IMG/VR virus record: IMGVR_UViG_3300014818_000016
Span: 1-39,054 of that record
Direction: 5' to 3' (one strand)
DNA length: 39,054 nt
Source of the DNA: a virus
Lineage: Duplodnaviria; Caudoviricetes
Notes under the pieces: model-generated
The model's input: the letters and a program-made list of their open reading frames with translations, nothing else
Databases searched by the model: none
What the model was told of the DNA's origin: nothing
Shown: positions 1,931 through 24,147 of the stretch, one piece after another
How positions within the stretch are numbered: position 1 is the first letter of the stretch
Layout of the letters: each line of letters starts with the position of its first letter
Translations under genes and position numbers: made by a program

Positions 1931-2310
1931 TGCTTGATCTTTCAGGATTCGACTTTAAGAGGTTCGCTGAAGCTGGCATAGAATTGCAGCTTCTCAACCC
2001 TGTTGACGGCAAGCCTTTAGATGCTTTTATTAGCATCAAGGGCGAGGACTCAAACGAGTGGCGCGAGGCATTGTTAACTAATGCTAAAGCGGCTAATCCT
2101 GAGGTAGATCAAAGCGCAGATGATCAGCAGAGAAAGATGGCTTTCTCTCTGGCATCTATCACCACTGGATGGCGTGGCATTTCTGAAAAAGAAGAGGCTA
2201 TCGAATACAGCAAGGACGCTGCAATGGCTTTGTATTTCCAATATGATTGGATTGCTAATCAGGTTTATGTAGCGCTAAAGGATAGAGAGCGTTTTTTAGT
2301 CAACGCCTAG
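1930..2310 (+). CDS. Tail assembly chaperone (gpG-like)
   Basis: Between tube and tape measure genes; ends in a slippery heptamer. Confidence 0.8.
   Translation: MLDLSGFDFKRFAEAGIELQLLNPVDGKPLDAFISIKGEDSNEWREALLTNAKAANPEVDQSADDQQRKMAFSLASITTGWRGISEKEEAIEYSKDAAMALYFQYDWIANQVYVALKDRERFLVNA
2292..2298 (+). promoter_or_regulatory. -1 ribosomal frameshift site T TTT TTA (G to GT)
   Basis: Heptamer in correct phase. The -1 frame is open (SQRLEALELYASHLGWLHSTPEK...) and runs into the 2418..2729 ORF. Confidence 0.85.
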
Positions 2311-2729: not shown

Positions 2730-4132
2730 CTGTAGATGTTCACTCGCTCACTCTCAAATATAAAGATGGTGGCCTGCAAAAAGGCATAACTGATTTAGAT
2801 AAGTATGCCATGGCTGGCGTGCAGGCTGGGAAGTCCACTTCGGTATTTACCGATAAAGTCGGCTTAATGAATACAACCATTAAGCAAACCGGAACTGTTA
2901 TCCTACCAAAGGCACAAGGAAGCCTTCGTAAATTTACAGGCAGCTTAAAGCCAGCTAAGAACGCAGCACAATTAGTGGCGTTTCAGGTTCAAGATTTAGC
3001 TGTTCAATTATCCATGGGAACAAGTGCGCTAATTGCCTTCGGGCAGCAAGCGCCGCAACTTGCCTCGGCCTTTGGCCCTGGCGGCGCTGTAGTTGGTGCC
3101 ATTGTTGGTGTTGGCTTTGCTATTGCTGGCCCTCTGATTGCCGCCTTCTCTAGTGGTGAAGATGCCGCTAATGATTTTCAATCATCAATTGACGGTGTTA
3201 GGGATAGCTTAAAATCTACCCGGTTAGAAGTTAATCAAGGCGCTGTTAATCTTCTCAAGAAGCAAATAAGAGAATCGACTGAGGCAATAAACGAACTCAA
3301 CGAATCAACTGAAAAAACAAGAAAGGCCCGCCTAAGACTCAACGTTAAGAACAGAAAGATAGCAGAAAACAACGCTGAAATAGAAAAGATTGAAAAGATA
3401 AGGATAAGGAATGCCGAAGTATTGGCAGAGCTTTATGAGCAGCAAAACAAAATACAGGAAGAAGGCATTGAACGACTAGGCGGCAAGGCTTCCAAGTCGC
3501 TAGATCCAGAAGGCGACAGGTTGCGTCATTTATTTGAACTCAACAAAATGGATGTTGCCGATAAGAAGCGAACTGAGGCAGAGAAAACCAGAATAACAAC
3601 CGCAGCAGTTCGGCATCGTGAAGCTGTTGAGCGCTCAACCATATCGGCAGCAACATCGACAATGGCCAACCTCGTTGAGATTGCCAAAGCTGGCGGTGAA
3701 GAGTCATTTCAAACCTATAAACGATTAGCCCAAACTCAAGCGGCTATGTCTGCTGCACTGGGTATTATGTCGGTTATCGCTGACCCGCTAATACCAACGG
3801 CATTAAAACCAATTGCGATTGGTGCTACTGCTGGTCTGGCGGCTGTTCAAATTGCACAGATTGACGCGCAGCAATACACAGCAAGAGAGAACGGCGGGCA
3901 AGTCATGGCAGGCTCTAAAGTGCTTGTTGGTGAGCGAGGGCCGGAAGTGTTAGAAATTGGCGCACAAGGTGGCTTTATTACTCCAAATAGCAGGCTTGGC
4001 GGCGGTGAGTCAGTAACAGTAGTTAATCAAATTGGTAATGGTGTTTCTGGTAATGTTAGGGCAGAGATATTATCTGTAATGCCTAGTATAATTACAGCGA
4101 CAACAAAAGCAGTTCGGAGCGGTAGACGATGA
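2726..4132 (+). CDS. Tape measure protein (468 aa)
   Basis: FQVQDLAVQL..GTS.L.AFGQQ.PQL lambda-type N-terminal motif, helical Ala/Glu/Lys-rich body, C-terminal GG.V.....LVGERGPE. Confidence 0.9.
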   Translation: MTVDVHSLTLKYKDGGLQKGITDLDKYAMAGVQAGKSTSVFTDKVGLMNTTIKQTGTVILPKAQGSLRKFTGSLKPAKNAAQLVAFQVQDLAVQLSMGTSALIAFGQQAPQLASAFGPGGAVVGAIVGVGFAIAGPLIAAFSSGEDAANDFQSSIDGVRDSLKSTRLEVNQGAVNLLKKQIRESTEAINELNESTEKTRKARLRLNVKNRKIAENNAEIEKIEKIRIRNAEVLAELYEQQNKIQEEGIERLGGKASKSLDPEGDRLRHLFELNKMDVADKKRTEAEKTRITTAAVRHREAVERSTISAATSTMANLVEIAKAGGEESFQTYKRLAQTQAAMSAALGIMSVIADPLIPTALKPIAIGATAGLAAVQIAQIDAQQYTARENGGQVMAGSKVLVGERGPEVLEIGAQGGFITPNSRLGGGESVTVVNQIGNGVSGNVRAEILSVMPSIITATTKAVRSGRR

Positions 4133-22162: not shown

Positions 22163-22491
22163 TGGCTATTCCAGCTTATGCCAAGGCAAGAATTGCATAC
22201 CTATGGTCTAGGTATGGCTCAATACCTAGAGAAGTTTACTTTGACTCTAGAAAGGAGAGCGCACCCCCTCGCTACGAAGATAGCCTTGAGGCTAAGGTGC
22301 TTATTAGTGAGGTAGTTAGTATTAATGACTCCTACTTATGCAAACCAAAGTCAAAGCCAGTAAATATTTGTGGTGAGATAACAAGAAGCAAAAAAGAAGT
22401 TATTGAAAGTGCGATTAAGCAGTCAGAAGAAGCCTCTGCTAGACTGGCTAGTTGGTTGGCGGATAAAAAAGAGAAGGAAGATCGGGTATGA
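22162..22491 (+). CDS. Hypothetical protein
   Basis: 109 aa; coupled on both sides. Confidence 0.6.
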   Translation: MAIPAYAKARIAYLWSRYGSIPREVYFDSRKESAPPRYEDSLEAKVLISEVVSINDSYLCKPKSKPVNICGEITRSKKEVIESAIKQSEEASARLASWLADKKEKEDRV

Positions 22492-23015
22492 AGAAGTCGG
22501 ATTCAATAATGGAGTTAGCAAAGGCGTTATGCAAAGCTCAGTCAGAAATGGGTGGCGCTGCTAAAGATGCTGCAAACCCGTTCTTTAAGTCAAAATACGC
22601 TGACTTATCTTCAGTGATTCGAGTGATTAAAGAGCCATTTGCTAACAACGGATTGTCATTTGTTCAATTCCCTTTGTGTGATGGTCAGTCGGCAGGTGTT
22701 GAAACTATATTGATGCACGAATCGGGTGAGTGGCTGCAATCAGAATATTTGATGCCTCTTGTTAAGAAAGACCCTCAAGGCTCAGGCAGCGCGATAACCT
22801 ACGCTAAACGGTACGCACTTCAAGCAATGTGCGGAATACCATCAGAAGACGATGACGGCAATCTAGCAAGTGTAAGCAAGCCACAGCAGGCAGGCTTCGC
22901 TATTGATGAAACTGCACAAGGTTGGATTAACGCAGTTAAGCAAGACAACTCAGTGCTGGATCAAATCACAGACCCAGCATACAAAGCATTTATTAAAACC
23001 AATGCGGGCATATAG
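22488..23015 (+). CDS. erf: ERF-family ssDNA annealing protein
   Basis: K...NPFFKSKYADL, L.H.SGEW and PQ..GSAITYA.RY.L....GI..EDDDG motifs. Confidence 0.92.
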   Translation: MKKSDSIMELAKALCKAQSEMGGAAKDAANPFFKSKYADLSSVIRVIKEPFANNGLSFVQFPLCDGQSAGVETILMHESGEWLQSEYLMPLVKKDPQGSGSAITYAKRYALQAMCGIPSEDDDGNLASVSKPQQAGFAIDETAQGWINAVKQDNSVLDQITDPAYKAFIKTNAGI

Positions 23016-23039
23016 CTCGCACAACCAAGAGAGAAGAAT

Positions 23040-23498
23040 ATGAGTCATTCAATTACTTGTAAGTTAAATAACGATGCCCGCAGCCATCAAGGACAGGCAG
23101 GAACCACATTTTTTGTGAGCTTAGGCGAAAAGAATTACAACTTTAAGACCAAGCAAAACGAATACACCAATTATGAAGCGGCATTGTTTGCTAAAGATGC
23201 TCAGATTGGTTTTTATCAATCAGCCCTGATTGCTGGTGCGATTGTTGAGGTTTCTGGCACTGGAATCTTGATGGAGATTGACCCGACTGGTCAGTATAAG
23301 CCTAAGCTGGTTATTCAGGATGCTAAATTGGGATTTGTTCATAGTGATAATCAAGGCGCACCGCAACAGCAAGGCCAGCAACAACCTATGCAGCAGGCAC
23401 CACAACAGCAGCAAGGTGGTTTTCAGCAGCAATATCAACAGCAGGGCCAGCAACAGCAGCAGGCACCTCAAGGAAATTTCAACCAGCCCCAGCGATAG
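23040..23498 (+). CDS. ssb: Single-stranded DNA-binding protein (short form; -1 frameshifted long form would end at 23587)
   Basis: Follows erf; OB-fold-like N-terminus (K..EYTNY.A.LFAK...G..VEV.G), Q-rich linker; DDDIPF lies in the -1 frame. Confidence 0.85.
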   Translation: MSHSITCKLNNDARSHQGQAGTTFFVSLGEKNYNFKTKQNEYTNYEAALFAKDAQIGFYQSALIAGAIVEVSGTGILMEIDPTGQYKPKLVIQDAKLGFVHSDNQGAPQQQGQQQPMQQAPQQQQGGFQQQYQQQGQQQQQAPQGNFNQPQR

Positions 23499-23513
23499 GG
23501 GCTCAAACATCGC
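23474..23513 (+). promoter_or_regulatory. -1 frameshift signal: A AAT TTC plus H-type pseudoknot
   Basis: Heptamer 23474-23480 in phase; stem 1 agcccc/ggggct (23485-23503); loop gcgat pairs with atcgc (23509-23513). Confidence 0.8.
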
Positions 23514-23592
23514 ATAGTAATGGTTTTGATTCGTTCGATGATGATATTCCATTTAGTAACTACCAGCTAAGAGGATACTGGATTTAGAATAA

Positions 23593-23631
23593 ACCGCCTA
23601 AGTTTGCAGTTTTGGATTTAGGCGGTATAAT
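23593..23631 (+). promoter_or_regulatory. Sigma70 promoter embedded in an inverted repeat
   Basis: TTGCAG-16-TATAAT; accgcctaa/ttaggcggt inverted repeat. Confidence 0.7.
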
Positions 23632-23637
23632 TAGTAC

Positions 23638-23777
23638 ATGGTGTTTAGCGGCATCAATAGAATGATTAAGTGCAGAGTGAAGGGTTTTTAATATAAAACA
23701 GGTTCAGTTGGGTTTAAATGCTCTGCTAAATCGCCCTCGCTAAGCTGCGGTCTGTTTTATATTAAGAGCCTTTTTTT
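23638..23777 (+). ncRNA. Attenuator-like leader RNA (c4-a1b1-like architecture)
   Basis: 5' hairpin with UUAGCG loop, then long stem agggtttttaatataaaacagg/tctgttttatattaagagcctt plus T-run; loop holds ctctgc and cgctaa, complementary to upstream gcagag and ttagcg. Confidence 0.65.
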
Positions 23778-23807
23778 ATGCCTCGAATATAAATAAACCA
23801 TTCTTTG

Positions 23808-24147
23808 ACCACTAACACCTACTCAGATTATCGAGTATAGGTAGTGGTGTCTCGTATTGCATCCATCATCAAAAAGATAGTTTCACAACAAAGCTCAAGC
23901 GTTATCAACGAAAGCGGATAATGCAAAGTTAGCCAGAAGCGTTAAAAATGGTTAGCGGATTAGAAGGATGATCATATTGACCTAATCTTACCGTGGTCAG
24001 TATTAAGCAGAGTTTTATTTGCCATTGGCTAGAAATAGTCTGATAGGTTCCAGCAAGAATTAAAACTGTACTCTGATAAGTTTGATGTGATGCCAAGTAA
24101 GTTAAGAATTAAACACTAGGAATAGCTCTGTATAGGCAAGAGATTCC
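23808..24147 (+). ncRNA. Candidate large structured non-coding RNA
   Basis: No ORF of 60 aa or more; at least seven helices, long-range closing stem, GAAA tetraloops, G-U pairs consistent with plus strand. Confidence 0.6.

Follow-up and report, generated by a model that had tools for sequence, protein, structure and literature searches.

The ssb gene of a phage that is long-tailed and marine, as judged by its genes, is predicted to be expressed through programmed -1 ribosomal frameshifting (probability about 0.88). [quoted passage not shown] The signal is real and conserved, and very probably functional; it represents a known mechanism acting on a new target, the SSB tail, carried by a portable cassette and accompanied by convergent alternatives. 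To our knowledge, the phage frameshifts described so far concern tail chaperones and virion proteins. No description of SSB frameshifting was found in the full-text literature, a collection with few subscription papers and no supplements. The term "ssb" is absent from the first 300,000 of the 449,034 characters of a 2016 review (PMC5009743) and, by term search, from PRFect (PMC10885494) and 10.1101/2025.10.02.679949.

The virus record, ~ 93% complete, comprises 39,054 bases, and this whole stretch is referred to as the window. Its genes include terminase, portal, major head, tail tube, tape measure, DnaB-like helicase and its loader, NinB, and NinG. The nearest host leads are contigs binned to Colwellia, and the window TerL reaches 71% with Oceanospirillum phage GJ44 and, with phages of Pseudoalteromonas, 63%. 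The ssb gene is placed after erf, and the tail assembly chaperone is a separate gene (1930-2310). The features of the ssb region are the following:

22488-23015, + strand: Erf-family ssDNA annealing protein, upstream neighbour of ssb (PF04404, E 2e-27)
23040-23498, + strand: ssb 0-frame ORF, short form of 152 aa ending in NFNQPQR-stop, without acidic tip (tblastn relatives annotated as OB-fold or SSB)
23040-23348, + strand: OB-fold head, 103 aa (AlphaFold2 and Foldseek)
23349-23473, + strand: Gln/Pro/Gly-rich linker (from sequence)
23474-23480, + strand: putative slippery heptamer A AAT TTC, in phase (GGA AAT TTC); G GGT TTT in loci L144 and L549
23481-23484, + strand: spacer AACC, 4 nt; an open closing A-U pair, the state in most relatives, would make it 5 nt
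23485-23503, + strand: predicted pseudoknot stem 1, AGCCCC (23485-23490) with GGGGCT (23498-23503), its two arms flanking the 5' strand of stem 2
23492-23513, + strand: predicted pseudoknot stem 2, GCGAT (23492-23496) with ATCGC (23509-23513), with compensatory changes among loci
23496-23498, + strand: 0-frame stop TAG, within the pseudoknot
23480-23587, + strand: predicted -1 extension, 35 aa, stop TAG at 23585-23587, long form 147 + 35 = 182 aa
23537-23554, + strand: DDDIPF acidic motif, -1 frame
23555-23584, + strand: SNYQLRGYWI, 10 residues past DDDIPF, conserved in L022 and L144

The window protein has no match in Pfam, PF00436 included, or in PHROG. Despite this, the gene is treated here as a probable SSB, with modest scores, because of its annotated relatives and structural matches. 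By tblastn, 152 cultured-phage records match it, many of them annotated as OB-fold or SSB, and the best Foldseek matches of the AlphaFold2 head model (pLDDT 74.7) are all SSB or PriB, at modest values (E 5e-4 to 1e-3, TM ~ 0.5). Heads that are 38-45% identical to that of the window match PHROG 44. In common with bacterial SSBs, the protein combines an OB-fold head, a low-complexity linker and an acidic Ile-Pro-Phe motif; the bacterial tip is constitutive and terminal, whereas the one studied here would be conditional and is followed by 10 residues.

The coordinates given in a preliminary description of this DNA all hold. The ORF 23040-23498 ends at 23498 in NFNQPQR with no acidic tip, the in-phase A AAT TTC, the spacer of 4-5 nt and the H-type pseudoknot are located as it described, and translation confirms a -1 frame running through DDDIPF to 23585-23587, for a total of 182 aa. 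As computed, an in-phase X XXY YYZ heptamer with a 3' structure within ~ 4-10 nt corresponds to the canonical organization of -1 frameshift sites. In the predicted pseudoknot, loop 1 is a single A, the junction A at 23497 is unpaired, and loop 3 is CAAAC. The stem 1 hairpin has a minimum free energy of -11 kcal/mol (z -2.1), while stem 2 of the window is the weakest variant, with 5 bp and -4.7 kcal/mol as a duplex versus -6.7 to -8.0. Of the window's 198 heptamers, counting both strands, a single one, that of ssb, has a predicted H-type pseudoknot behind it, and controls gave none at 3000 random positions and none in 2000 shuffles of the 45 nt downstream. In E. coli reporters, as described in the available portion of PMC4066793, U_UU.C is the second most efficient tetramer, heptamers of the form R_RR.U_UU.Y are shift-prone, and shift efficiencies extend from 0.018% to 54%.

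No further element of the signal was detected. The dnaX frameshift signal has an upstream Shine-Dalgarno sequence, and no such element is present at the window ssb, where inspection of the 6-17 nt upstream revealed no Shine-Dalgarno-like stimulator of the dnaX/IS911 type at that spacing. The 12 columns upstream of the heptamer vary among cassettes, and the cassette alignment contains no conserved element beyond the pseudoknot. No Rfam family matches the pseudoknot RNA, apart from two weak chance matches. Just past the -1 stop, a 13-pair hairpin (-18 kcal/mol, 23593-23631) overlaps a promoter-like TTTGCA-17-TATAAT; it does not score as an intrinsic terminator.

Across the six frames, the sole acidic-tip motif is the DDDIPF at 23537. 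When the last 17 codons of the -1 frame are compared with those of locus L022, six are identical, 10 are synonymous and one is an Arg/Lys exchange; by this comparison, with its 10 synonymous and one conservative change, the -1 tail is under coding selection. Three other routes to a tailed product were rejected: stop read-through, because the tail is in the -1 frame; an internal start, because that frame has no start codon (no ATG, GTG or TTG back to its previous stop); and transcriptional slippage, because there is no long homopolymer.

What was previously claimed of the DDDIPF tail stands in part. The motif is indeed encoded in the -1 frame, but a standard host-partner tip is improbable, as 10 residues follow it. 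In cassette loci the tip is terminal in 9/15, carries an extension of 9-10 residues in 5/15, and has one extra residue in L549. In E. coli SSB, a single glycine added past the terminal Phe impairs binding of chi and DnaG, according to the accessible part of PMC3632105. Given this one-glycine effect and the 10 conserved residues after DDDIPF, the long form of the window probably does not display the standard tip, and since the Phe is not terminal, the tail in this genome is likely to bind its partner in a non-standard way. In loci L210, L217, L249 and L260, an in-frame DDIPF is followed by extensions of 12-15 residues ending in His-Cys-Ile/Met. In view of the extension in the window and similar ones in such in-frame relatives, the acidic tail added by the switch here is of a phage-type variant.

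The cassette formed by heptamer, pseudoknot and tail was found in 14 further phage or metagenome loci, that is, in 15 with the window. In each of the 15, the 0 frame stops five codons past the heptamer, and the -1 frame encodes an acidic tip. The heptamer is A AAT TTC in 12 of the other loci and G GGT TTT at the identical place in L144 and L549, so its form is kept while its letters differ. A protein search of IMG/VR returned six loci: L006 with the cassette, four with an in-frame tip, and L002 with a different C-terminus. In L006, the head is 96% identical to that of the window and the linker is different, while the end is again NFNQPQR-stop, with the same heptamer and a -1 frame ending exactly in DDSIPF-stop. 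This locus was found by protein similarity alone, free of pattern bias, and its stem 2 has a compensatory C-G to A-U change. Pattern scans yielded five SSB contigs among 105 matches, L144 among 62 and L549 among 85, the remainder being unrelated, and in a metagenome pattern scan all 12 matches were the cassette. For several metagenome loci the project numbers are adjacent, and the samples may be non-independent.

Pairing was assessed in 12 distinct cassettes, a count that leaves out L180, L181 and L549; 98.5% of cells are paired, in comparison with 36-46% in slid registers. In stem 2, three cells at two positions changed on both sides, a count reached in 0/500 shuffles, although 12 related sequences can outdo shuffles without any structure. 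The five pairs of stem 1 are 100% paired in the 12 sequences, a value largely set by the search patterns. Since these patterns largely fixed stem 1 and four of the six stem 2 pairs, the evidence from covariation is limited to two stem 2 positions and L006. The pseudoknot of L549 is degenerate: it was missed by the scan for 4 + 4 bp, and the covariance model gave it an E value of 0.94. Altogether, the homologue comparison proposed in the preliminary description revealed conservation of the heptamer, the covarying stem 2 and the -1 frame tip in cassette loci, and the programmed -1 shift suggested there is supported by the conserved heptamer with in-frame stop, covarying stem 2, a tail under coding selection and contigs free of an indel.

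In cultured phages no cassette was found, as blastn and tblastn of the phage collection matched the DDIPF part only, and the genes at the SSB position of seven cultured relatives (L387-L390, L554-L556) all have the tip in frame. A GTDB pattern scan gave 0 cassette matches, and the covariance model, run with no positive control on 151 genomes of one order, detected no cassette. With the stem left free, scanning for A AAT TTY produced 52 loci and no new stem 1 variant, and the query P0056 yielded no further cassette locus.

A one-base assembly or sequencing error, for which an indel check had been suggested, is extremely improbable as a source of the frame offset. The check was performed on assembled Logan contigs, and the error reading profits from there being contigs only, with no raw reads, behind it. 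Deinococcus radiodurans ssb "frameshifts" reportedly proved to be sequencing errors, which also counts for this reading. Nevertheless, contigs of X1, X2 and X3 show 0 gaps: those of X1 and X2, both possibly the source of the window, span 22900-23900, and record 21 of X3, from a different study, corresponds to 23467-23554 with 0 differences. The same offset thus recurs in a contig of another study, as well as in the 14 other loci with different heads, and an error would not produce a covarying pseudoknot. In run X4, a close relative departs from the window immediately past the heptamer, with 89 letters in place of the 116 bases that follow 23482, and a further contig of X1 and X2 has only 23474-23514 in common with the window.

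Among distinct relatives of the window SSB, the tip is in frame in 69/80, and none of these 69 has a heptamer with a pseudoknot (a script counted 70 tipped relatives; L399 was moved to the tip-less ones by eye). The switch is thus an optional trait of this family, most homologues having an in-frame tip. That most relatives lack the switch counts against the frameshift reading, and that none of the 69 has a heptamer with a pseudoknot counts in its favour. The 11 relatives without an in-frame tip comprise three with the cassette, three (L194, L199, L403) with G GGA AAG-stop, two (L203, L204) with the tip in the +1 frame and three with another C-terminal domain; in 6/11, an in-phase heptamer precedes a tip encoded in the -1 frame. 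In L188, L212 and L399, heads of the window's SSB family are joined to other C-terminal domains that replace the tip, and the L212 end looks similar, on visual inspection, to the Erf C-terminus of the window.

The frequency of in-frame tips is in accordance with a reading in which no programmed shift occurs, the tail having been lost by a frameshift mutation, with the -1 frame as a remnant and the RNA structure serving mRNA stability or pausing at the stop. Tail-less proteins of the SSB fold also exist, PriB being among the fold matches. We consider this reading very unlikely: the -1 tail 3' of the stop shows a synonymous bias, the heptamer form survives the sequence swap in L144 and L549, and the -1 frame is open to an acidic tip in 15/15 loci.

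Database proteins point in the same direction as programmed frameshifting. The best 120 of 376 include 70 with an aromatic tip, 31 ending in Asn/Gly-Phe plus 3-6 residues, three ending in Gly-Lys and 16 others, some ends being possibly cut by contig ends. Thus, among these best 120, 31 of the 50 tip-less proteins end in Asn/Gly-Phe plus 3-6 residues, versus ~ 8% expected. Judging by protein ends only, such endings may be the footprint of heptamers of this kind.

Across loci, the cassette is identical to that of the window in 32-37 of 40 nt, while the heads to which it is attached are 96% identical, 38-45% identical, or not usefully alignable. Cassette-bearing L027, L178 and L185 are PF00436 SSBs, and for L182 and L549 there is no matching Pfam family. 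In the family to which the window SSB belongs, a single clade of cassette heads was rejected (p-AU 5e-43, for 29 rows chosen from 78, the bootstrap being not fully settled). The complete genome of L047 has no match to the window terminase or major head protein, and in the genome of L022 the head protein is 78% identical to that of the window. The unit of ~ 110 nt (heptamer, pseudoknot and tail) is likely a module swapped by recombination between SSB genes, and the Gln-rich linkers are the likely route of exchange. Within one family, repeated loss of the cassette from an ancestor may account for its distribution, but it leaves the unrelated cassette heads unexplained.

L182 (556-918), L549, L555 and L556 represent a small protein family with no Pfam match, occupying the SSB position after an exonuclease in Vibrio phages. 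Its members have Gln-rich linkers and Pro-Phe tips, and they likely constitute an unannotated family of ssDNA-binding proteins.

Other arrangements that could switch a tail were observed in addition to the cassette. In L194 (1713), L199 (525) and L403 (1641), G GGA AAG stands directly before the stop and DDDIPF-stop is in the -1 frame; G-rich stretches lie upstream, and the heads do not form one clade. A search for AAAG-stop upstream of DDIPF, covering 31/64 parts and 120 loci, found only L325, which is the same as L194. In L203 and L204, the 0 frame of ssb ends (~ 1660-1750) in CAA TAG followed by a long hairpin, while the +1 frame encodes CxxC...CxxC-GIPF-stop. The first CAA is followed 31 nt later by a second one, so that either a +1 shift or hopping of the ribosome may take place. 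L487 (751, + strand) and L506 (- strand, its heptamer lying 751 nt into the oriented sequence) encode Enc34-type SSBs (PF10991) with an in-phase G GGT TTT and a strong hairpin. Their -1 frame ends in DDIPF-stop, with two CxxC motifs in that of L487, and the 0 frame continues for 70 or 40 residues to another acidic end, resulting in two alternative tails. It is about an even chance that dosing of SSB interaction tails by recoding is a selected general strategy of phages, a portable dial placed on unrelated families, with several re-inventions, by which we mean G GGA AAG-stop (L194, L199, L403), G GGT TTT with a hairpin (L487, L506) and the +1 route (L203/L204).

At the window ssb, the pseudoknot would make the ribosome pause while AAU is occupied by tRNA-Asn and UUC by tRNA-Phe, and a fraction of ribosomes would slip back in tandem to AAA UUU. 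Shifted ribosomes would add Asn-Phe and then Gln-Pro-Ala-Pro, bypass the TAG and end after DDDIPF-SNYQLRGYWI, whereas unshifted ones would terminate five codons later. The strength of the signal would set the share of tailed subunits, and with it the density of protein-recruiting tails on SSB-coated DNA. We would guess that the long form is the minority product; there may also be a fixed ratio of long to short form and mixed oligomers.

Known systems share some of these properties. E. coli dnaX (tau/gamma), as far as the source excerpt describes it, is likewise a replication gene with two subunits that differ in a C-terminal interaction part, produced by a heptamer and a 3' structure. There, however, the shift truncates the product instead of adding a tail, the heptamer differs, and the structure is a hairpin and not a pseudoknot. 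Lambda gpG/gpGT is, like the window ssb, a phage gene with a shift near the 0-frame end and an extended product made at a set ratio (30:1, in the part of PMC5009743 considered), but the protein is unrelated and gains a second domain, in contrast to the 25-38-residue tail here. Genes of the chaperone G/GT class lie between the major tail and tape measure genes, unlike the window ssb, which follows erf. In the window itself, an in-phase T TTT TTA at 2292-2298 (+ strand; genes 1930-2310 and 2418-2729) is present in the tail assembly chaperone gene (PHROG 313). Its -1 frame is open for 143 codons, to 2729, making it a candidate for a lambda G/GT-type frameshift, and with this candidate besides ssb, the phage likely has two -1 sites. 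IS3-family elements, in the portion of PMC4066793 concerned with them, also couple a bacterial slippery motif with a pseudoknot stimulator 4-10 nt downstream; their shift yields a transposase fusion. In SPP1, frameshifting fixes the share of oligomer subunits with a C-terminal addition (gp17.1/gp17.1*, 3:1, in the consulted section of PMC6316719), although this is a +1 shift at CCC UAA in a tail tube protein, with no pseudoknot.

Setting the density of tails on the SSB coat has about even odds of being the purpose of the switch. Tail-less SSBs are said to bind DNA more tightly, and E. coli reportedly needs more than one tail per tetramer. Two other purposes, conflict with host defence and feedback control, were weighed, and the three are not mutually exclusive.

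Selection of the same frameshift for host conflict, instead of for adjusting replication and recombination in the phage, is rather unlikely. Few tails would evade SSB-sensing defences, or tail-less subunits would crowd out host SSB, and both the rapid swapping and the repeated invention of tail switches fit an arms race. Natural frameshift-truncated SSBs alter the Nhi sensitivity of staphylococcal phages (10.1101/776245, in part), yet in the portion describing this case it is the full tail that protects, which is the opposite direction. The phages involved, JBug18 and Pike, resemble the window in having the SSB C-terminus naturally out of frame, and differ in that the available text describes fixed indel truncations, not recoding, in unrelated phages. 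According to excerpts of two further reports, a DRT4 escaper had an altered acidic segment of an SSB tail (10.64898/2026.10.21.760695), whereas T7 SSB without its terminal Phe still activates DARNA (10.64898/2026.02.22.705581).

Regulation of the frameshift by the protein itself appears doubtful. SSBs bind single-stranded nucleic acid, so free SSB might bind or melt the pseudoknot region of its own mRNA and thereby alter, in the course of infection, the proportion of tailed subunits. A precedent that counts in favour is T4 gp32, which acts at a pseudoknot to repress translation of its own mRNA, as do the feedback RNAs proposed beside DUF2815 SSB genes in part of 10.64898/2026.10.21.760695. On the other hand, no conserved extra element exists outside the pseudoknot, and the presence of the cassette after heads that belong to unrelated families fits a signal that is self-contained and constitutive rather than SSB feedback. 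That SSB tunes the dial by acting on the pseudoknot is, accordingly, the boldest extension of the frameshift reading and a long shot.

The tail is the means by which SSB, a hub of DNA metabolism, recruits its partners, and it is also the trigger or shield for several anti-phage systems. If programmed frameshifting at ssb is true, many phage SSBs listed in databases as "tail-less" are annotated as half of the product. The cassette would provide a bacterial pseudoknot stimulator that is natural and compact and of which natural variants exist, and these natural alleles would make it possible to test the number of tails required by an SSB coat and the use to which they are put.
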